Positions 12,539 through 21,962 of a stretch of 64,000 nt of DNA are shown here, piece by piece. The stretch comes from Candidatus Nitrosocosmicus sp. (GTDB lineage Archaea; Thermoproteota; Nitrososphaeria; Nitrososphaerales; Nitrososphaeraceae), in NCBI GenBank assembly GCA_031177355.1, contig JAPSGR010000002.1, forward strand, positions 34,161-98,160, given 5' to 3'. Under the pieces are notes generated by a model. That model ran no database searches. It was given only the letters and a program-made list of their open reading frames with translations, and was not told where the DNA came from. How positions within the stretch are numbered: the first letter of the stretch is position 1; each line of letters begins with the position of its first letter. Position numbers and translations under genes: made by a program.

Positions 12539-13309
12539 CTATTTGTTGGCGATCATGCTTGCAAAGATCCCTCCGCCGATGCCATTATCGATATTTACAA
12601 TCGAGAGGCCAAATGAACATGTCTGTAGCATCGAGGCAAGAGCCCCTACTCCATTACCTCCGAACCCATATCCAATTGATGTTGGAACACCTATCACGGG
12701 GACGTTAACAAGTGATGTTACAACGACCGGAAGGGCTCCTTCCATTCCAGCTATTGCCACTATAGCATCCACCTTTTCTAGGGTCATCTCCTTTAATGGT
12801 CCAATTAACCTGTGAATGCCTGCAATTCCGACATCATAGGAAACATATGATGAGCATCCCATAACTCGAGTTGCCAACCTCGCTTCCTCTGCTATTCCTA
12901 TATCGGAAGTGCCAGCACAGATTATCCCTACTTTACCTTCTCTGATTCGTGGTAATGAGGATTCATCTTTGTAAATAAGAAGAGAAGTACTATTACGACC
13001 GTTATCAACTATATACCCCATCTTGTCAAAGTAATCACCAAGCTTCTTAATGAAAGAGGGATTAATTTTACTCACTAAAACATACCCCTTCTTTTGAAGG
13101 ATCCTATTTACGATCAATAGTAAATCGCGGGGTTTTTTGTGAGTAGCAAGCACAATTTCTGGAACAAGTTTTCTATGAGATCTATTAACATCAAGTTGTG
13201 CTACCTGGTTTTCAATGTGTTCTATGGAGAAAAGGGAGAGACTATCAATCACCTCATCTAGGCTTTTCTTATTGTTCCTATAATCAAGTAAAATATCTTT
13301 TAAATCCAT
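12539..13309 (-). CDS. larB: Nickel-pincer cofactor biosynthesis carboxylase/hydrolase LarB
   Basis: PurE-like fold: AGTSDI.IAEEA, DVGIAGIHRL, AGMEGALP, PTSIGYG, LASMLQTC and VNIDNG.GG; N-terminal D..R..R...PE motif. Confidence 0.92.
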   Translation of the reverse strand: MDLKDILLDYRNNKKSLDEVIDSLSLFSIEHIENQVAQLDVNRSHRKLVPEIVLATHKKPRDLLLIVNRILQKKGYVLVSKINPSFIKKLGDYFDKMGYIVDNGRNSTSLLIYKDESSLPRIREGKVGIICAGTSDIGIAEEARLATRVMGCSSYVSYDVGIAGIHRLIGPLKEMTLEKVDAIVAIAGMEGALPVVVTSLVNVPVIGVPTSIGYGFGGNGVGALASMLQTCSFGLSIVNIDNGIGGGIFASMIANK

Positions 13310-13326
13310 AGAACATGCTATTACAT

Positions 13327-14244
13327 TTATAGGGGCAACACGGATATCGCTTCTCTTACATTCTGAACACCGCTCTCAAATTCCTTACGTTCAAAATCGT
13401 TTAATGGAAGTTCAATAATTTTTTCAATACCATTTCTACCAACTACTGCTGGTACACCTATACAAACATCTTTTATGCCGTATTCTCCATCTAGACAGGC
13501 TGATAAAGGTATCACACTTTTTTTGTCTTTGACTATGGCTTCAGCCATAATTGAAACGGCGTTACCCGGTGCATAAACTGTAGCTCCCTTTAGTTTTATA
13601 ACTTCAGCAGCCACCTGTTTAGTCTTTTCATAAATTTCATTCGATTGACTTTCATTTATAAAATTAGTCAAAGGTATCCCTGATATTGATGAGAAACGGA
13701 TCAAGGGTAACATTTTTTCCCCATGTTCGCTGATAACCATAGCAGAAATGGAATCTCGAGAGAGTTTCGTATAATCATGAATGAAGCTAGTAAATCTCGA
13801 GAGATCCAGCATACCACCCATACCCATTACATTGTTGCGGGGAAAATTAGTAATTCTTAAGGCTAGATAGGTCATAGGATCTAGAGGATTCGTTACTACA
13901 ATCAATTTGGAATTTTTATTGTAGTGTACAATTTTTGAAGCAACATCCTTGACAATTGTGGCATTTGTCTTCAACAAATCCATTCGAGTCATGCCGGGTT
14001 TTCTTCCAACTCCGGCAACTAGAATAACAATGTCCGAATCCTTGACAACACTAAAGTCGTTGGTTCCAACCAAATAACTATCTAGACCTTGGACAGAAAG
14101 TTGATGATTAATGTCCATTGCTTCCCCTTGAGGCAAGCCTTCAATAATATCTATGAGATTTATGTTAGGATCCAGTTCCCTTAACCCACAATTAAGAGCT
14201 ATTGAAGCTCCAACTTTGCCAGAACCAATAATAGAAATTGTCAT
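13327..14244 (-). CDS. mdh: Malate dehydrogenase (LDH-like, archaeal)
   Basis: GSGKVG Rossmann motif, [10 protein letters not shown] substrate loop (MDH-type Arg), VTNPLD, SEHG and KGATVYAP. Confidence 0.95.
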
Positions 14245-14382
14245 ATACTTGTGAGATTATTTTTTTTATTTATAGTTTTAAAAATATCATTTAATATAAT
14301 AGTGAATCAAGGCCGATAAAGGAGATGACATCTATTTTTGCAATAATTCAATATAGAGGTCAGTATATTAACCTAATATACA
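14245..14382. promoter_or_regulatory. Divergent promoter region for mdh-larB and larC-larE-iscS
   Basis: 138-bp AT-rich gap between head-to-head genes, containing TATA-like runs (TTTATAG, TTTAATATAA). Confidence 0.5.
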
Positions 14383-15642
14383 GTGACTAAAATAGCAGTA
14401 GTTGATGCACAAGTCTGCGGAATTTCCGGAGACATGTTCTTGTGTGCTTTAGTCGATTGCGGAGCAGATAAGAACAAAATCATAAGAAAAATAAAACTGA
14501 TAGAGAAGCAATTTAATGGATCGACTATAAAGAGTCTTGATTTCATCACATCAGAGTCAAACGGGATAAAAGCAACTAAACTTATGATTGATCTAGAAGA
14601 AAAAATTGCAGAAAGAAAGGCACTTGAGATGCTACGGATTCTTGCAAGATGTTGCGAAATTGCGAAACTCAATGAAAGAGGAAAGTATTTCGTAATCGAG
14701 TCGATGAAAGCCATAATTAGGGTCGAGTCCATTATTCATAATAAAGACCCAAGGGATCTTCATTTGCATGAGTCAGCTAGCATAGACACAGGTATTGATT
14801 TGATTGGAACTGCAATAGCATTGGATGATTTAGATTTGCTTAATAATACTGTTTTTTATGTAACAAAAGTAGCAGTTGGTGGAGGATTTACTAAATTTTC
14901 TCATGGTATAGTACCAAATCCGACTAATGCTGTATTAGAGATGTTAAAAGATCTCAAAATACCTATTATAGGTGGACCAGTGAATTCCGAGGTTACTACA
15001 CCAACAGGTGTGGCAATACTATTTGGATTAAACGCTAAAAAAACTCTATTTTATCCGGATATTTCTGTAAACCAGATCGGGTACGGATCAGGATTAAAGA
15101 AATTTGATGGAGTTCCCAACTTGTTAAGAGTGTGTATAGGGACTCCAAATTATGATGTTAGTATTTCAAAAGATACCGTTTCAATCTTAGAAACAAACAT
15201 AGATGATACAACCGGCGAAATTTTGGGAAACCTAATGGAAAAATTATCTTCCTCGGATTTAGGCGTAAAAGATGTTACGATAACTAATGGATTGACGAAA
15301 AAAAATAGACCCGTTCACATCCTTAAGGTGATATGCTCTGAACAAACAGAAAAAAAAATTGTGAGCACTATATTTGAAGAAACTGGTACATTGGGTATTA
15401 GAAGAACAAATAATGAAAGGTATAGATTGAACAGATATAATATAATACTCCCAATCAATATTAATAACAAAAATTTCGTGATTAATGCAAAAGTATCTAA
15501 AGACGCTTTAGGAAATGTAGTTCGCGTAAAACCCGAATCTGAAAGCATAAAATACATTGCTCAGAAATCAAACAATAGTTACAGGAAAACTCTCGAGATC
15601 GTCAATAATTTAATATTTCAAAAAAAACTATATTCAAAGTAG
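14383..15642 (+). CDS. larC: Nickel insertion protein LarC (full length, unsplit)
   Basis: GISGDMFLCAL, HLHE...D..ID, HGIVP.P, TPTG, GYG.G, LETNIDD, TGTLGIR and KPE motifs. Confidence 0.92.
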   Translation: MTKIAVVDAQVCGISGDMFLCALVDCGADKNKIIRKIKLIEKQFNGSTIKSLDFITSESNGIKATKLMIDLEEKIAERKALEMLRILARCCEIAKLNERGKYFVIESMKAIIRVESIIHNKDPRDLHLHESASIDTGIDLIGTAIALDDLDLLNNTVFYVTKVAVGGGFTKFSHGIVPNPTNAVLEMLKDLKIPIIGGPVNSEVTTPTGVAILFGLNAKKTLFYPDISVNQIGYGSGLKKFDGVPNLLRVCIGTPNYDVSISKDTVSILETNIDDTTGEILGNLMEKLSSSDLGVKDVTITNGLTKKNRPVHILKVICSEQTEKKIVSTIFEETGTLGIRRTNNERYRLNRYNIILPININNKNFVINAKVSKDALGNVVRVKPESESIKYIAQKSNNSYRKTLEIVNNLIFQKKLYSK

Positions 15643-15651
15643 TGAACTTCT

Positions 15652-16518
15652 ATGCATTATAAGAATACTAAAGATATCTCTTTTTCAGCTAGTAAGAAGT
15701 TTAACAATTTGTTGACTTGGTTTAAATCCAAAAACTCAAAGGTCATTATTGCTTTGTCCGGTGGCGTCGACAGCGCCTTAGTAGCCCTGGCAGCAAGACA
15801 AGCTTTAGGAAGGAAGAATGTATTAACGGTAACAGCGAATTATAAAACCTTGGCAAATGAGGAACTGGAGGTAGCCAAAAAAATAGCTAAAGAGATTGAT
15901 GTGGACCATATTATGATAGAATATAATGAACTTGAAAATCAAAATTTTGTCAAAAATGATAATCTAAGGTGTTTTCATTGCAGAAATGAGCTGGCAGATA
16001 ATCTACTAAAAGTTGCCAAGGAAAAGAAATTTGACCTAATCGTAGACGGAAGCCAAATTGATGATTTAGATGACTACAGGCCAGGGTTGATTGCATTACG
16101 AGAAAAAGGAATCAGCAGTCCACTAATGGAAACTGGATTAAACAAGATAGAGATACGTTATTTGGCAAAAATTAACAATCTATCAGTTTATGATAAACCA
16201 TCTAATTCTTGTCTCGCATCAAGGATTCCACATGGATCAGAAGTCACAACGATTAAGTTAAAGAGAATTGAAAGCTGTGAGAGTTGGATTAAGCAAAACC
16301 TGAAATTGAGAAACATTAGAGTTAGGGATCATGGAGATTTAGCAAGGATTGAAGTTGAGAAAGATGAACTTGGTAAAGTACTAGATCCTGAATTAATTCC
16401 ACAATTAATTAATGTTATAAAGGGCCACGGTTTTAAGTTTGTTACACTGGATTTAGAAGGATATCGGAGTAACAAAAACGATCATCCAATTAATTATGAT
16501 ATCAAATTAAAAGTGTAA
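15652..16518 (+). CDS. larE: ATP-dependent sulfur transferase LarE (PP-loop; CxxC...C type)
   Basis: LSGGVDS PP-loop, RCFHCR, DDYRPG, KPSNSCLASRIP, RVRDHG and LDLEGYRS motifs. Confidence 0.93.
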   Translation: MHYKNTKDISFSASKKFNNLLTWFKSKNSKVIIALSGGVDSALVALAARQALGRKNVLTVTANYKTLANEELEVAKKIAKEIDVDHIMIEYNELENQNFVKNDNLRCFHCRNELADNLLKVAKEKKFDLIVDGSQIDDLDDYRPGLIALREKGISSPLMETGLNKIEIRYLAKINNLSVYDKPSNSCLASRIPHGSEVTTIKLKRIESCESWIKQNLKLRNIRVRDHGDLARIEVEKDELGKVLDPELIPQLINVIKGHGFKFVTLDLEGYRSNKNDHPINYDIKLKV

Positions 16519-16529
16519 ATCGGAATAAT

Positions 16530-17711
16530 ATGCACATGAAAAATAATTCTACTATATATTTAGATAACGCGGCCTCAACCCCGGTGGACTCAGAAGTCAT
16601 CCAAGCAATGATACCTTTTTTGGTAGATCACTTTGGTAATCCGTCATCTCTTCACAATATGGGAAGGAGAACAACCCTTGCTTTATCCAAATCTAGATCA
16701 CTTGTTTCTAAACTAATAGGCGCTAATCCCAACGAAATTTATTTTACTTCAGGCGGGACCGAATCTAACAATTTAGCTTTAATAGGATATTCTAAAGCAA
16801 TAAAAAAGATAAGGCCAGATTGTGATAGAATTTTGGTATCAGAGATAGAACATGAATCCGTATTAGAAGCTGTCAAATATATTGAAAAGGAATTAAAGTT
16901 TACTGTTGATTATATCCCTATTACCTCTGATGGTATCGTGGATATGAATGCCTATTCTAATTTATTGTCTCCTAAAACTAGTCTGGTTAGCGTAATGTTA
17001 GTAAATAACGAAATTGGTACAATACAACCTATACAACCAATGATTGAAATCATAAAAAAAAGAAGATATAATACCGTTTTTCATTCCGATGCAGTCCAAG
17101 CGCTGGGAAAAATTCCTATTGATGTAAAGCAGATCAAGCCAGATATGTTATCGATTTCATCTCACAAGATAAACGGGCCAAAGGGAATAGGTGCATTATT
17201 TGTTAGAAAAGGAATTTGTCTTGAACCCATTGTTTTTGGTGGAGGTCAGGAGCTGAACTTGAGATCCGGAACAGAGAATGTATATTCCATAGTGGGGTTT
17301 GGAAAAGCATGTGAGATCTGGAAAGACAAATTACAAATGTCACTTCCAGTCCTTCAAAAACTCCAGAATTACTTAATTAGCCGAGTCCTTAACGAAATAC
17401 CGGGCGCAAGTGTAAACGGCACTTTGCAAAAAAGGATTTTCAATAATGTAAATTTCTCGTTTAAGGGAGTTAACGGAGAAGATCTACTTACCAAGTTGGA
17501 CGAGTTTGGAATAGAGGCATCTACTGGATCCGCATGCTCCTCTAATAAGAAAAAGAAAGCATCTCATGTACTAAAATCATTAGGACTGTCATATGATCAA
17601 ATCAGTGGCTCAATAAGATTCTCAATAGGAAGTCAAAACACTATTGCAGAATTGGAAGTAGCAGTAGATATTTTGAAAAGAGTGGTAAACGAATTTAGAA
17701 ATATGAAATAG
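16530..17711 (+). CDS. iscS: Cysteine desulfurase (IscS/NifS type)
   Basis: YLDNAASTP, GNPSS, FTSGGTES, HSDAVQ, SSHKINGPKG (PLP Lys), RSGTEN and STGSAC (catalytic Cys). Confidence 0.95.
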   Translation: MHMKNNSTIYLDNAASTPVDSEVIQAMIPFLVDHFGNPSSLHNMGRRTTLALSKSRSLVSKLIGANPNEIYFTSGGTESNNLALIGYSKAIKKIRPDCDRILVSEIEHESVLEAVKYIEKELKFTVDYIPITSDGIVDMNAYSNLLSPKTSLVSVMLVNNEIGTIQPIQPMIEIIKKRRYNTVFHSDAVQALGKIPIDVKQIKPDMLSISSHKINGPKGIGALFVRKGICLEPIVFGGGQELNLRSGTENVYSIVGFGKACEIWKDKLQMSLPVLQKLQNYLISRVLNEIPGASVNGTLQKRIFNNVNFSFKGVNGEDLLTKLDEFGIEASTGSACSSNKKKKASHVLKSLGLSYDQISGSIRFSIGSQNTIAELEVAVDILKRVVNEFRNMK

Positions 17712-17806: not shown

Positions 17807-18310
17807 ATGAATATGAGTAATATTACTAATGATAACAAAATTGAGGTTGGAGATAGAGCCCCTGATTTCGAGTTATTAGATACAGACCAAAAATTACATA
17901 AATTATCAGACAACAAAGATGGTATGACAATTTTGGCTTTCTTTCCTGCTGCTGGCTCACCTGTATGCACAGTCGAGATGTGCAACTTTAGAGATTCCCT
18001 CAATAGTCTTAAGAGCAAAAACGTGAATGTTCTGGGAATATCAGTTGATAGTCCATTTGCAAATAAAGTATTTGCAGAACATCATAAACTCAATTTTCCG
18101 ATACTAAGCGATTATGACAGACAAGTCATTGAAAAATACAATGTCGTAATGCCAAGTCTTGGCAAATTAAAAGATTACAAAGTGGCAAAGAGATCAGTAT
18201 TTGTTATAGATAAGAACTCTCAGGTGATATATAAATGGGTAACAGACAATCCATTAATTGAACCTAACTATAATGAAATCAGAAAAGTTACCAATACACT
18301 TACTGGATAA
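17807..18310 (+). CDS. Peroxiredoxin (BCP/PrxQ-like)
   Basis: GDRAPDF, FFPAAGSPVCTVEMC (PxxxTxxC-like, CxxxxC), GISVD, LSD and RSVFVID motifs. Confidence 0.88.
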   Translation: MNMSNITNDNKIEVGDRAPDFELLDTDQKLHKLSDNKDGMTILAFFPAAGSPVCTVEMCNFRDSLNSLKSKNVNVLGISVDSPFANKVFAEHHKLNFPILSDYDRQVIEKYNVVMPSLGKLKDYKVAKRSVFVIDKNSQVIYKWVTDNPLIEPNYNEIRKVTNTLTG

Positions 18311-18379: not shown

Positions 18380-18901
18380 TCATTCCAAAACTGCAACGGT
18401 ATCATTTCTAGATATACTTTGACCTTCTTTCACCTTTAATTCTTTTATAATCCCATCCCTGTGCGATTTTATGGCTACCTGCATTTTCATCGACTCCAAA
18501 ACCACAATGTTATCTCCTTGTTTTACGCTGTCGCCTTTGTGGATTGCTATTGAGATTACTCTTCCTGGTATTTGACTTGAAATAGTATTTTGAGAGTTTG
18601 GACCTCCAGAAGATGCACTCGATTTTTCAATTATCTCAGACAATTTACTATGTTTTTTGAGCACCATCGGTAAATTATCCAAAATTATCTTTAATTCTGT
18701 GCTAGTTGCTTCACTAATTTTGGTTTCGTGATATGTATTATCTAACATAAATTCAAATTTATCTGTTCTGATATCAATAATTCCAATTAGGTGTTCCGAT
18801 CCATTTATTTCAATAATCATATTATTATTCTTGTCAAATCCTTTTATTTTTCCCTCGAATTCCTTATTGATATCATCGATCTTTATTTCCATGTTAATCA
18901 A
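18380..18901 (-). CDS. accB: Biotin carboxyl carrier protein of acetyl/propionyl-CoA carboxylase
   Basis: LESMKM biotinylation motif in a C-terminal lipoyl/biotinyl domain. Confidence 0.92.
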   Translation of the reverse strand: MINMEIKIDDINKEFEGKIKGFDKNNNMIIEINGSEHLIGIIDIRTDKFEFMLDNTYHETKISEATSTELKIILDNLPMVLKKHSKLSEIIEKSSASSGGPNSQNTISSQIPGRVISIAIHKGDSVKQGDNIVVLESMKMQVAIKSHRDGIIKELKVKEGQSISRNDTVAVLE

Positions 18902-20406
18902 TCAATCCTCCCAAATTTCCAGGAATCTTGTTTGGCTCTATCGGTAGTATTGTTTTTCTTAATGAATTCAGATTGAATAATAGATGAAGCTACTGCAGGT
19001 AAGAGCCTTTTTTGTAAATCAGAGTTTTGAATCTTCTGTTCATCCTTCATTTTTTGAATGATAGAATATCTATCAAGGTAATCTGTGGATAACTCACCGC
19101 TAATAAAGTATTGGTCATTCATAATTGTTTTGTAGAGCGGAATAGTTGTATTTATCCCCTCGATAATAAACTCATCAAGAGCATTCCTCATCCTGCGTCT
19201 AGATTCATCAAAGGTGGAGCCCCAAGATATCAACTTTGCCGTCAATGAGTCATAGAATCCAGAAACAGTACAGCCTGGATACAGGTAAGTATCTACACGG
19301 ATCCCTGGGCCATAGGGTAGATTACAATAAGGAACTCTGCCTACAGAAGGAGCAAAGTCATAGAAGGGATCTTCTGCATTTATACGACATTCAATTGCAC
19401 TACCATTTAATTTTAGATCATCCTGCTTAAATGGTATTTCTTCTCCATTAGCTATTGATATTTGCAGTTTCACTAGATCTAGACCTGTAACTAGCTCTGT
19501 TACAGGATGTTCTACTTGTAATCTTGAATTAATTTCTATAAAGTAAAAGTTACCTTCGGGATCACAAAGAAATTCAGCAGTTCCGGCATTAAGGTAATCG
19601 ACTGCATCAGCGGCTCTTTTCGCTATTTCACCGATCTCATTTCTTTTTTCAGGAGTCATTATAGGTGATGGAGACATTTCTATCAACTTTTGATGTCTTC
19701 TTTGTATCGAGCATTCTCTTTCAAATAAATGTCTTGTATTACCATGGGAATCTCTGATGAGCTGAAATTCGATATGTCTGATTTTCTCTAAAAATTTTTC
19801 TACAAATAGAGCTGCCTTACCAAACGCAGCCTTTGATTCAGCAGATGCCATCTCAAATTCCTGTCTTAATTCCTTCTCGTCTTTAGCCAACCTAATCCCT
19901 CGACCTCCACCACCAAATGCAGATTTAAGCAAAACAGGGTATTTAGCATCATTTGCAATTTGAACTGCCTTCTCTACATCCTCAATTACCCCTTCGCTAC
20001 CTGGTACAGTGGGCACTTCCGCTTCCTTCATTATGCGTTTGCATTTCATTTTATCGCCCGTTAGATCCATTGCCAAACTCTTGGGACCGATGAAGATTAT
20101 GTTATTCTTCTCACACATTTCTGCAAATGTTTCATTCTCAGACAAAAATCCATAGCCTGGATGTATAGCATCTACACCAGTTGCGATAGCAACCTCCATT
20201 ATCTTATTCATATTCAGATAGCTCTGAGACGGCGCTGCTGGACCTATATGGTATGCATAGTCTGCACGCTTGACATGAATAGAACGTGTATCCTCATCTG
20301 AATAGATAGAAATAGATTTAATGTCTAACTCTCTACAAGCCCGTATTATCCTGAGAGCGATTTCCCCTCTATTTGCGATCAGAATACTTGATATTCGTTT
20401 GGTCAT
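18898..20406 (-). CDS. accC: Biotin carboxylase subunit of acetyl/propionyl-CoA carboxylase (3HP/4HB cycle)
   Basis: ANRGEIA, HPGYGFLSEN, GGGGRG, ERECSIQRRHQK, RLQVEHPVTE and ECRINAED motifs. Confidence 0.97.
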   Translation of the reverse strand: MTKRISSILIANRGEIALRIIRACRELDIKSISIYSDEDTRSIHVKRADYAYHIGPAAPSQSYLNMNKIMEVAIATGVDAIHPGYGFLSENETFAEMCEKNNIIFIGPKSLAMDLTGDKMKCKRIMKEAEVPTVPGSEGVIEDVEKAVQIANDAKYPVLLKSAFGGGGRGIRLAKDEKELRQEFEMASAESKAAFGKAALFVEKFLEKIRHIEFQLIRDSHGNTRHLFERECSIQRRHQKLIEMSPSPIMTPEKRNEIGEIAKRAADAVDYLNAGTAEFLCDPEGNFYFIEINSRLQVEHPVTELVTGLDLVKLQISIANGEEIPFKQDDLKLNGSAIECRINAEDPFYDFAPSVGRVPYCNLPYGPGIRVDTYLYPGCTVSGFYDSLTAKLISWGSTFDESRRRMRNALDEFIIEGINTTIPLYKTIMNDQYFISGELSTDYLDRYSIIQKMKDEQKIQNSDLQKRLLPAVASSIIQSEFIKKNNTTDRAKQDSWKFGRID

Positions 20407-20417
20407 TACTAAACCCT

Positions 20418-21962
20418 TTAAAGATTAATATTTCCATGTTTTTTCCATGGCCTGCTTTCTCTTTTATTTGAGAGAGCATTTAGTGCGCTAATTATCGTAC
20501 TTCGAGATTCCATTGGATCTATTACCGAATCAATTGTTCCCCTTTCAGCAGCAATGTATGGATTCGCAAACTTGTTTCTATATTCTTTAGCTAAATTTTT
20601 CTTTTTTGCCGCAGCATCAGCAGAATCTTTAAGGCTCTTGCGATGAATAATTGTTATGGCTGCCTCTGGACCGAGTACAGCAATTTCAGCAGTGGGCCAA
20701 GCAATGTTCAAATCGGTCCCTAAATTTTTGCTTCCCATGGCGATATATGCTCCTCCATATGCTTTGCCAATAATGCACGTAATCTTTGGTACGGTTGCCT
20801 CACAATAAGCAAAAAGAAGTTTACTCCCATGTCTAATAATACCATTATGCTCTTGATCAGTTCCTGGTAAATAACCTGGAGTGTCAACTAATGTAATAAT
20901 TGGGATATTAAAAGCGTCGCAAACTCTTACAAATCTTGCAGCCTTGTTTGAAGAGTGTATATCCAAAGCGCCTGCTAAGAATAGGGGCTGATTTGCAATA
21001 ATGCCTACAGATCTACCACCCATTCTCGCAAAGCCTACTACTATATTTTCAGCAAATAGTTCATGTACTTCAAAGAAATTCCCGTTATCGACCAAGGATT
21101 TTATGATTTCCTTCATATCATAAGATTGGTATGGATTCTCAGGTAGTATATTGATCAAATTTGGATCGAGTCGACTCGCATCGTCAGTGTTCTCCATTAT
21201 TATTTTAGGTTCTTCTCTATTATTTTGTGGTAGAAAAGAAATCAAAGTCTTTATCTTATCCATACAATCGACTTCATCTTTTGCTATGAAATGAGCTACT
21301 CCTGATTTTGTAGCATGAGTCCTTGCTCCACCTAATTCTTCAAATGTCACCTCTTGACTGAGCACCTCTTTTACAACCTCTGGTCCTGTTACGAACATTT
21401 GTCCAATGTTTTCAACCATGATCACAAAATCCGTCATGGACGGCGAATAGACTGCACCTCCAGCACAGGGCCCAATACTTGCGGTTATCTGCGGAATTAC
21501 TCCCGAAGCAAGCGTATTCTTTAAGAATATGTCTCCATATCCGTCCAAGCTTGACACTCCTTCCTGAATCCTTGCCCCACCAGAATCAAGAATACCAATA
21601 ATTGGACAGCCTACTTTGAGCGCTTGGGACATTACTTTAGAAACCTTTTTGCCAGCCATTTCTCCTAAAGAACCCCCTAAAACTGTAAAATCATAAACAT
21701 AGATGAATACTTGTCTGCCGTTAATTGTTCCAAATCCCGTAACCAAACCATCACCATAGAATTTCTTTAATTCTGGATCATCGCTTCTATGAGTTACAAA
21801 TTTATCAATTTCTGTAAACGTATTTGGATCCAATAAAAGATTTATTCTCTCTCTTGCAGTCAGTTTACCCTTCGAATGCTGGGATTCAACTTTATCTTGA
21901 CCACCACCGGCTTCAGCGCTATGCTTTCGGTTATAGTATTGTTTTAGTTTCTCCTCATGCAT
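20418..21962 (-). CDS. pccB: Carboxyltransferase subunit of acetyl/propionyl-CoA carboxylase
   Basis: GKLTARERI, DSGGARIQEG, GPCAGGAVY, DTPGYLPG, KAYGGAY and KKHGNINL motifs. Confidence 0.96.
   Translation of the reverse strand: MHEEKLKQYYNRKHSAEAGGGQDKVESQHSKGKLTARERINLLLDPNTFTEIDKFVTHRSDDPELKKFYGDGLVTGFGTINGRQVFIYVYDFTVLGGSLGEMAGKKVSKVMSQALKVGCPIIGILDSGGARIQEGVSSLDGYGDIFLKNTLASGVIPQITASIGPCAGGAVYSPSMTDFVIMVENIGQMFVTGPEVVKEVLSQEVTFEELGGARTHATKSGVAHFIAKDEVDCMDKIKTLISFLPQNNREEPKIIMENTDDASRLDPNLINILPENPYQSYDMKEIIKSLVDNGNFFEVHELFAENIVVGFARMGGRSVGIIANQPLFLAGALDIHSSNKAARFVRVCDAFNIPIITLVDTPGYLPGTDQEHNGIIRHGSKLLFAYCEATVPKITCIIGKAYGGAYIAMGSKNLGTDLNIAWPTAEIAVLGPEAAITIIHRKSLKDSADAAAKKKNLAKEYRNKFANPYIAAERGTIDSVIDPMESRSTIISALNALSNKRESRPWKKHGNINL

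Follow-up and report, generated by a model that had tools for sequence, protein, structure and literature searches.

The 64-kb stretch of DNA analysed here (hereafter, the window) belongs to contig C71 of the genome (G000) of a Candidatus Nitrosocosmicus sp. It carries larB, larC and larE, the genes for synthesis of the cofactor nickel-pincer nucleotide (NPN), grouped around a malate dehydrogenase gene (mdh) and accompanied by a cysteine desulfurase gene. Our preferred interpretation, to which we give a probability of roughly 0.6, is that this is an orphan NPN locus, in which the biosynthetic pathway would be functional, the malate dehydrogenase (MDH) an ordinary enzyme, and the enzyme that uses the cofactor (the client) a protein other than a canonical LarA, encoded outside the cluster. 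The occurrence of larBCE without larA has been a puzzle in the literature since 2014. An earlier note on this DNA had suggested that NPN serves either a malate/2-hydroxyacid racemase encoded elsewhere and coupled to the MDH, or an NPN-dependent enzyme outside the LarA family; the second option remains the best reading, although no candidate has been pinned down. Genomes, contigs, loci and families are cited below by our own labels (G, C, L and f, respectively).

NPN biosynthesis genes and the search for LarA

The larB and mdh genes had been described as lying head-to-head with larC, larE and iscS, and the open reading frame (ORF) scan of the window, from which all gene coordinates and gaps are taken, bears this out for all five ORFs. 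On the minus strand, mdh (13327-14244), encoding a lactate dehydrogenase (LDH)-like L-malate dehydrogenase with Ldh_1_N and Ldh_1_C domains, is followed 17 bp downstream by larB (12539-13309), encoding the nicotinic acid adenine dinucleotide (NaAD) carboxylase/hydrolase of the first step of NPN synthesis. On the plus strand, larC (14383-15642; CTP-dependent nickel-inserting cyclometallase, with LarC1 and LarC2 in a single ORF) is separated by 9 bp from larE (15652-16518; ATP-dependent sulfur insertase of the [4Fe-4S], CxxC...C class), and larE by 11 bp from the gene for a cysteine desulfurase of the IscS/NifS type (group I) with a class-V aminotransferase fold (16530-17711). The two sets of genes diverge from an AT-rich intergenic region of 138 bp (14245-14382), in which several TATA-like tracts can be read and which we presume to be a bidirectional promoter region.

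The claim that the NPN biosynthesis set is complete was upheld, with LarB, LarC and LarE all scoring above curated family cut-offs and carrying the corresponding motifs. LarB scored 220 bits with the NF033503 equivalog (cut-off 175) and only 34 bits with the purE model (cut-off 149.6), and hence scores as LarB and not as PurE. It was aligned to LarB from Lactiplantibacillus plantarum (7MJ0, E 1.4e-32), and the cysteine aligned with chain position 221 of 7MJ0 is retained (MLQTCSFG); we take this position to be the catalytic Cys221 of LarB (Rankin et al. 2021). LarC, a single ORF of 419 aa with a GTG start and an N-terminal GISGDM motif, matched PF01969 (308 bits, cut-off 22.1), its LarC1 part matching TIGR00299 (130 bits, cut-off 90) and its LarC2 part NF052512 (104 bits, cut-off 50). 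LarE matched TIGR00268 (274 bits, cut-off 150), has SGGVDS as its PP-loop, shows the CFHC motif with a further, third cysteine in SNSCLASR, and could be aligned to the cluster-type LarE 8CNZ. LarE proteins with the CxxC...C motif, as defined in PMC9283937, bind a [4Fe-4S] cluster and act catalytically with IscS and cysteine, unlike the sacrificial L. plantarum enzyme (PMC9283937). Since the CxxC motif is present, a LarE of the sacrificial type (L. plantarum, single Cys176, no CxxC) can be ruled out here. The desulfurase scored 275 bits with PF00266 and was matched best by the NifS/IscS models, yet below their equivalog cut-offs; it has the pyridoxal phosphate-binding lysine (SSHK) and the catalytic cysteine (TGSACSS). 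The other desulfurase-like genes of the genome are only 25-27% identical to it, and its adjacency to larE was found in all six loci of ammonia-oxidising archaea (AOA) examined (6/6), including that of G135, in which the cluster is dispersed. We presume that it is the sulfur donor to LarE. To judge from their sequences, the lar genes look functional, and NPN would be their product.

According to the proposed mechanism, LarB would carboxylate NaAD at C5 and release AMP, after which LarE would adenylate and thiolate both carboxylates catalytically, via a non-core sulfide carried by its [4Fe-4S] cluster. The desulfurase, presumably co-transcribed with larE, would replenish this sulfide from cysteine, and LarC would insert nickel and form the C-Ni bond. 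The set resembles that for NPN synthesis of the Thermotoga maritima type in its LarB, in a LarE with SGGxDS and CxxC...C, in the single-polypeptide LarC and in a desulfurase as the expected sulfur source (PMC9283937). However, the desulfurase genes of T. maritima are distant from larE, whereas here the gene lies directly behind larE and is kept there across AOA, and T. maritima has clients of the LarA family, none of which was found in the genome studied here. The larA-larB-larC1/C2-larD-larE operon of L. plantarum has orthologues of LarB (with the position-221 cysteine), LarC and LarE in common with our locus, from which NPN is likewise expected. The two differ in that our locus has no larA and no larD, its larC is without a frameshift, its LarE is of the catalytic cluster type rather than the sacrificial single-cysteine type, and mdh occupies its centre.

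A whole-genome search for LarA, which the earlier note had recommended, was carried out on the assembly (2.32 Mb, 131 contigs, 97% complete). The Pfam models Lar_N (PF09861) and LarA_C (PF21113) gave no match at E<=1 anywhere in the genome; in the T. maritima genome, used as a positive control, Lar_N was found above its cut-off. A custom hidden Markov model (HMM), built from six Nitrososphaeria LarA ORFs, was run unfiltered on the complete six-frame ORF set of the genome (10,286 ORFs). The best ORF of the window reached only E=1.2, and a single ORF of the genome was matched, on contig C24 (E 3.6e-6), encoding the cryptic LarA-fold protein described below. These searches rule out a canonical LarA elsewhere in the assembled genome. 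The statement that the window contains no larA thus stands for canonical LarA, and can be extended to the whole genome, but a divergent LarA-fold protein is encoded on another contig. A canonical larA elsewhere together with an unconserved mdh linkage had been named as findings that would speak against the proposal; neither Lar_N nor LarA_C was matched, and the linkage proved to be widely conserved (see below). It could be argued that a canonical larA lies in the approximately 3% of the genome left unassembled, given an assembly of 131 contigs. We consider this extremely improbable, since Lar_N is also absent from three genomes of the same genus that are each closed in a single contig (G120, G159 and G171) and from the other listed f1 genomes, and soil AOA have been reported without Lar (PMC11131427).

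The same absence extends to the relatives of this organism. Lar_N was detected in 16 of the 201 sampled genomes of the class, with a single occurrence (G179) within the amoA-carrying families, that is, families with amoA in their tested members, and none in the family of our genome. In the four amoA-carrying families sampled, 135 genomes are larB-positive, and 134 of these have no canonical LarA. LarA has been described as confined to deep-sediment clades, and larB and larC have been listed as a 'nickel cofactor maturation system' in sediment bins, their presence elsewhere being left uncommented (Kerou et al. 2021, PMC8397731).

Distribution of larBCE and linkage to mdh

In the 201 genomes of the class, LarB exceeded its cut-off in 141, including essentially every genome of families f1, f2, f3 and f5, among them streamlined marine genomes of 1.1 Mb. 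LarC was present or absent together with LarB in all 14 test genomes (14/14). The retention of larBCE in genomes as streamlined as 1.1 Mb points to a selected function of the whole pathway. The genome studied here has an archaeal amoA gene and its closest named relatives are Candidatus Nitrosocosmicus; the organism is a soil ammonia oxidiser of the Nitrososphaeraceae. The 'ammonia oxidizer' part of its earlier description as an autotrophic ammonia oxidizer is therefore backed by amoA and by these relatives. In the amoA-positive genomes tested, larB and larC were both present. By contrast, G164, a closed genome of 1.5 Mb from the same order (f4), is amoA-negative and has neither larB nor larC, while keeping mdh (47% identity), aldo-keto reductases (AKRs) and, for the LarA-fold protein, a weak homologue. 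A correlation of larB and larC with ammonia oxidation is suggested by this single contrast. In G167, larB, larC and mdh are missing together, which we read as a missing contig. From its distribution, the NPN unit appears to be ancestral to AOA, and hardly any sampled genome of the amoA-carrying families lacks it.

Lar-positive lineages that are not AOA include f7 (g43), f8 and f14. Also outside the amoA-carrying families, four f9 genomes (G005, G009, G013 and G021) have one to four LarA homologues above the Pfam cut-off and no LarB or LarC, and a congener, G025, has larB-larC-larE. Either the cofactor is scavenged in the LarB-less genomes, or their LarA homologues work without it.

The mdh gene adjoins larB in 126 of the 134 related genomes that have both genes, so that the arrangement is far from chance, and the divergent pairing of mdh and larC is kept in four AOA families. 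The outer flanks vary from family to family, with the acetyl/propionyl-CoA carboxylase (acc) and peroxiredoxin (prx) genes in f1, f3 and f5, ribosomal genes beyond larB in f1, and a radical S-adenosylmethionine (radical-SAM) gene beyond larB in f2. The five-gene core is thus more stable than its surroundings, which leaves room for co-regulation with the malate/oxaloacetate node. In five genomes of f3 and f5, about 5 kb separate mdh from larB and encode, on the same strand, EtfB, EtfA and a FixC-FixX fusion; this etfB-etfA-fixC/fixX module lies at L045:8022-12133 in G116 (f3) and at L046:3540-7477 in G174 (f5). No homologue of these electron transfer flavoprotein (ETF)/Fix proteins was found in our own genome. 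In G135, mdh, larB and larC-larE-desulfurase are located at three separate sites. Because of the etf/fix insertions and the dispersal in G135, physical coupling of mdh and larB is not required. The linkage to mdh put forward in the earlier note is therefore conserved, but the functional tie that it seemed to offer is weaker, since the MDH is canonical, is the sole MDH of the genome and has orthologues in lar-less lineages, and since the linkage is interrupted or dissolved in the genomes just described. In the proposed scheme, mdh would stand beside larB through old synteny, with etfBA-fixCX still separating the two genes in two AOA families.

In the window itself, a BCP-type peroxiredoxin gene (17807-18310) lies beyond the desulfurase gene and is followed by an operon for biotin carboxyl carrier protein, biotin carboxylase and carboxyltransferase (acc, 18380-21962), where an acetyl/propionyl-CoA carboxylase operon had been predicted. 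In three AOA families the lar cluster has this acc operon (3-hydroxypropionate/4-hydroxybutyrate cycle) at its flank. Genes for ribosomal proteins L18, S5 and L30 are found downstream of larB. An ORF of 119 aa antisense to the start of larC (14373-14732, minus strand) is most likely spurious. In f2, larB is followed by a gene for a 524-aa radical-SAM protein with a CGRGCDFC motif (L051:8781-10358 and L048:7848-9422), 77-78% identical to the copy in our genome, which is located at G000:C55:32637-34208 (minus strand). The radical-SAM gene stays beside larB in G135, despite mdh having moved away, and it is the only neighbour that larB keeps there; the surroundings of this dispersed cluster yielded no client candidate. 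The f2 radical-SAM protein is probably unrelated and may belong to lipid or cofactor chemistry.

Candidate NPN-using enzymes

The MDH scored 369 bits with NF004863 (cut-off 283), remained below the cut-off of the stricter TIGR01763 equivalog (310 vs 352 bits), and is the sole Ldh_1_N match (MDH/LDH family) of the genome. The solved bacterial-type MDHs 4PLH and 7AOB gave strong full-length matches (E 5e-83 to 6e-80; 4PLH, E 4.8e-83). All of the canonical residues that were checked are present, namely GSGKVG (GxGxxG), the adenosine-ribose aspartate, Arg102 (malate specificity) and Arg109, as well as the catalytic residues in LDLSRF (Asp168/Arg171) and EHG (His195). Orthologues with 43-48% identity occur throughout the lar-less families of the class. 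We read this protein as an ordinary LDH-like L-malate dehydrogenase, for which the conserved residues predict the use of NAD. It has been suggested that these MDHs may perhaps also accept pyruvate (Kerou et al. 2021, PMC8397731); our literature search retrieved no data on MDH enzymology for AOA.

When the residues of MDHs from lar-positive genomes (31 sequences) were compared with those of lar-less genomes (13 sequences) and of the two PDB entries, 19 positions proved characteristic of the lar-positive proteins. Several of these (Gly80, Gly143, Ala221 and Thr222) are also found in the MDH of the lar-less G164. Eight residues were lar-specific (Ser8, Met43, Val76, Met145, Leu148, His156, Leu179 and Asn228), and these substitutions are fully confounded with phylogeny. 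The MDHs of this order have KGAT(V/I)(Y/F)AP where others have GSA(Y/F)(Y/F)AP, with a threonine at the equivalent of LDH Thr246 (positions 221-222), and the asparagine at position 228 is invariant in lar-positive AOA.

The single ORF of the genome that was matched by the custom LarA HMM (G000:C24:9863-10984, plus strand; the same as L101:9863-10984) encodes a cryptic protein of 374 aa, for which Pfam and PDB sequence searches gave no match. In profile-profile comparisons (hhalign), its family was related to the Nitrososphaeria LarAs with a probability of 98.1% in local and 99.3% (E 8e-20) in global alignment. The AlphaFold model of the protein, obtained from an alignment of 18 sequences, had a pLDDT of 92.1 and a pTM of 0.91, and the 15 best PDB matches of this model in Foldseek were all LarA-family proteins (8EZH, E 3.7e-21, TMq 0.81), with the next match at E 1e-3. 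These matches include 5HUQ, 6C1W, 7S91, 2YJG, 9EID, 4NAR and 9Q3J, the lactate racemase entries having TMq values of 0.74-0.82. The protein therefore resembles the racemases and epimerases of the LarA superfamily (5HUQ, 7S91 Mar2, 9EID and 9Q3J) in its predicted full two-domain fold (TMq <=0.82) and is homologous to them by profile. However, it is about 50 residues shorter, invisible to Pfam and distributed independently of larBCE, and its cofactor and catalytic residues are replaced. In the global profile alignment, the equivalents of Asp72/Arg75 are variable residues, His108 is replaced with Phe, His174 with Asp133, Lys184 with Thr143 and His200 with Ala159, and Tyr294/Gln295/Lys298 with Gly/Asp/Asn. 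The family (18-24 members) has no invariant histidine, lysine or cysteine; its invariant positions are Asp133, Phe136-Gly137, Thr143, Met154, Trp254-Asn255 and Glu271, together with an N-terminal MPEIWLxYG. We conclude from the predicted structure and the profile comparison that the C24 protein is a LarA-superfamily member with a changed site. 'Absence of larA' thus depends on the detection method used, as this protein shows.

The cryptic family was found in every AOA genome sampled, and also in the lar-less G164, in most f9 genomes and in some f6 and f11 genomes; it is missing from the LarB-positive G031 and G058. Its conserved neighbours are the genes for the TATA-binding protein (TBP) and a pyrE-like gene, and it was never seen beside lar genes. 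A class II fumarase gene (G000:C24:6901-8295, minus strand) is located about 1.5 kb from the LarA-fold gene, with the TBP and pyrE-like genes between them. The fumC-TBP adjacency recurs in several f1 genomes (L061, L064 and L067) and was not seen in the f2 loci, which cover only about 1.5 kb on each side. The protein is labelled as hypothetical by NCBI and sometimes as 'nickel-dependent lactate racemase' in IMG, a label that is not backed by its residues. In agreement with the pyrE-like neighbour, a 361-aa 'arCOG02046 nickel-dependent lactate racemase' beside PyrE appears in a supplementary table (Kerou et al. 2021, PMC8397731).

The assertion that the characterised NPN enzymes are LarA-family proteins is now out of date, since NphT and an ornithine cyclodeaminase dependent on NPAD, the cofactor's adenine-dinucleotide form, have been published (PMC13524815). 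NphT is an NPN user with an AKR fold (PDB 9YEB), in which Lys200 tethers the cofactor and His144 is a nickel ligand, and 427 AKR genes co-occur with lar clusters (PMC13524815); the ornithine cyclodeaminase is known to us as it is cited there (Desguin 2025). The NphT and NPAD-ornithine cyclodeaminase clusters resemble ours in having larB, larC and larE without larA beside a gene annotated as an NAD-dependent oxidoreductase. They differ in that the neighbour here has an LDH/MDH fold with a fully canonical NAD site, whereas NphT is an AKR whose cofactor tunnel is truncated and which carries a His/Lys motif. An ornithine cyclodeaminase was rejected as the client because the genome has no such gene (OCD_Mu_crystall, PF02423; best match 16.8 bits, E 0.0025, below the cut-off). 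Four AKR genes are present in the genome, on contigs C75, C126 and C88, and none in the window. By eye, these AKRs have no histidine after the S/T-N motif (the presumed position of NphT His144) and no lysine at the end of strand 7, although this mapping, made without the NphT sequence, is weak. The 9YEB entry was not among the PDB sequence matches of one of them (AKR2), but it is perhaps absent from the copy of the PDB that was searched.

Gene neighbourhoods in non-AOA genomes were also considered. In G031 (f7, g43; no LarA), genes for tetrahydromethanopterin (H4MPT)-dependent C1 transfer are flanked by larB and a split larC (L082:2575-11908); they encode formylmethanofuran:H4MPT formyltransferase, formylmethanofuran dehydrogenase-like subunits, methenyl-H4MPT cyclohydrolase and an Mtd-like dehydrogenase. 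In G003, fixCX-etfA (L081:17786-19989) lie about 7 kb from larB, beyond a suf operon. Neither association (H4MPT or fix/etf) can be transferred to our locus, our own genome being without an ETF/Fix homologue.

Several observations weigh against an orphan locus with an ordinary MDH. The searches revealed no client, so a separate non-LarA client would be reached by elimination; a LarA-fold protein does exist in the genome; every sampled AOA genome has at least one AKR, which leaves room for an NphT-like client; some of the eight lar-specific MDH residues map, by motifs and in LDH numbering, to the surroundings of the nicotinamide pocket, close to residues 166, 169 and 252; and a linkage maintained in 126 of 134 genomes with differing outer flanks exceeds background synteny, so that the MDH itself could be involved. 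Were the MDH itself the user of the nickel-pincer cofactor, its Rossmann site would probably be occupied by NPAD, and the protein would serve as a 2-hydroxyacid/2-oxoacid hydride shuttle instead of a plain NAD-MDH. Such a role would agree not only with the position of mdh within the cluster and with a divergent spacer shared with larC in four families, but also with its retained adenosine-binding aspartate, which is compatible with a dinucleotide cofactor, and with the precedent of an NPAD-using Rossmann enzyme, the ornithine cyclodeaminase, as cited in PMC13524815. Many of the genes co-occurring with larBCE in larA-less clusters bear the annotation of NAD(P)H oxidoreductases, possibly in error (PMC13524815), and this reading of the MDH therefore deserves a test. 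Nevertheless, we regard it as quite unlikely, because all of the checked NAD-binding and catalytic residues are canonical and the protein matches ordinary bacterial-type MDHs over its full length, because as the sole MDH it must supply a standard reaction needed by the cell, and because orthologues occur in lineages without lar genes, among them G164 from the same order, which shares several of the residues that seemed AOA-specific. Furthermore, G135 keeps all the genes at three separate sites, and LarB scores as a normal carboxylase/hydrolase equivalog which, if it hydrolyses like L. plantarum LarB, would yield a mononucleotide and not NPAD. The C24 protein (arCOG02046-type) might instead use residues unlike those of known LarAs to bind NPN or a variant of it. 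Its confident model, its exclusively LarA-family top matches, its profile similarity to the Nitrososphaeria LarAs, its occurrence in all sampled AOA and its occasional IMG name are consistent with this, as is the location of its family invariants in segments that carry active-site residues in LarA. However, the protein is a poor candidate, because every cofactor residue is replaced, leaving no conserved histidine, lysine or cysteine for nickel binding or a cofactor tether, and because its occurrence, in lar-less G164, most f9 and several f6 and f11 genomes and not in LarB-positive G031 and G058, does not follow larB, with TBP and pyrE-like genes rather than lar genes as its neighbours. We therefore consider it unlikely to be the client and did not favour it. 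For the same reasons, the proposed malate/2-hydroxyacid racemase encoded elsewhere and coupled to the MDH finds no backing, this LarA-fold protein being the only one found.

An NphT-like NPN-dependent hydride transferase among the four AKRs has the covalent NPN of NphT (9YEB) and the frequent co-occurrence of AKR genes with lar clusters in its favour, and the ubiquity of AKRs in AOA would accommodate it. We judge it very unlikely, since all four genes are distant from the lar genes and lack the presumed NphT residues in the by-eye mapping, and 9YEB was not retrieved with AKR2, subject to the limits given above. AKRs are equally present in the lar-less G164, and their distribution is therefore uninformative. 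Finally, the product of the pathway might not be enzyme-bound NPN at all: it could be some other thiolated pyridine nucleotide, or a metal-binding metabolite that stays free, or the Lar proteins could be relics with another role. This would account for the lack of a client in the Lar_N, LarA_C, custom LarA HMM, AKR and ornithine cyclodeaminase searches, and the f9 genomes with LarA and without LarB or LarC indicate that client and pathway are not always coupled in this class. The likelihood of such an outcome appears smaller still, given that LarB, LarC and LarE keep their checked catalytic motifs and score as equivalogs, that LarB and LarC strictly co-occur and that the pathway persists in 1.1-Mb genomes. 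To our knowledge, there is no precedent for a function of free NPN.

We therefore return to the orphan locus with a separate non-LarA client as the best explanation. This client would most likely be an enzyme with a tightly bound cofactor that shuttles hydride, of a fold for which no link to NPN in archaea has yet been made. A broader proposal, which we advance only tentatively and consider less probable than the orphan locus itself, is that AOA depend on a new kind of nickel-pincer enzyme, different from a canonical LarA, an NphT-type AKR or an ornithine cyclodeaminase, that was gained or fixed with ammonia oxidation and is connected with autotrophy or with the malate/oxaloacetate node. Candidates for such an enzyme are an MDH with NPAD, the residue-swapped LarA-fold protein and a 3-hydroxypropionate/4-hydroxybutyrate cycle step that transfers hydride. 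The malonyl-CoA, acryloyl-CoA and succinyl-CoA reductase genes of the thaumarchaeal version of this cycle were still unassigned in 2018 (PMC6038301).

Nickel in ammonia-oxidising archaea

What is new here is the whole-genome negative result for canonical LarA, the quantified linkage to mdh, the amoA contrast, the MDH residue comparison and the cryptic LarA-fold protein. Our literature search retrieved no paper linking NPN with Thaumarchaeota as a group or with Nitrosopumilus, and no data on a nickel requirement of AOA. AOA are among the most abundant microbes in the oceans and in soils, with control over nitrification and a large part of dark carbon fixation. The near-universal presence of larBCE without canonical LarA in the sampled AOA probably points to a nickel enzyme yet to be found in this abundant microbial group. 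They offer a clean hunting ground for it, with small genomes, cultured strains, a universal cluster and one lar-less relative, G164, which serves as a natural subtraction control in the search for the NPN client.

If all AOA make NPN, they would need nickel in a way that has so far gone unaccounted for; many of them, Nitrosopumilus maritimus SCM1 included, have no urease. If the interpretation is true, an AOA enzyme is missing from every metabolic model. Only two NPN users outside the LarA family are known, both published in 2025-2026, and an archaeal non-LarA user, universal across the guild, would widen the known biological chemistry of nickel.

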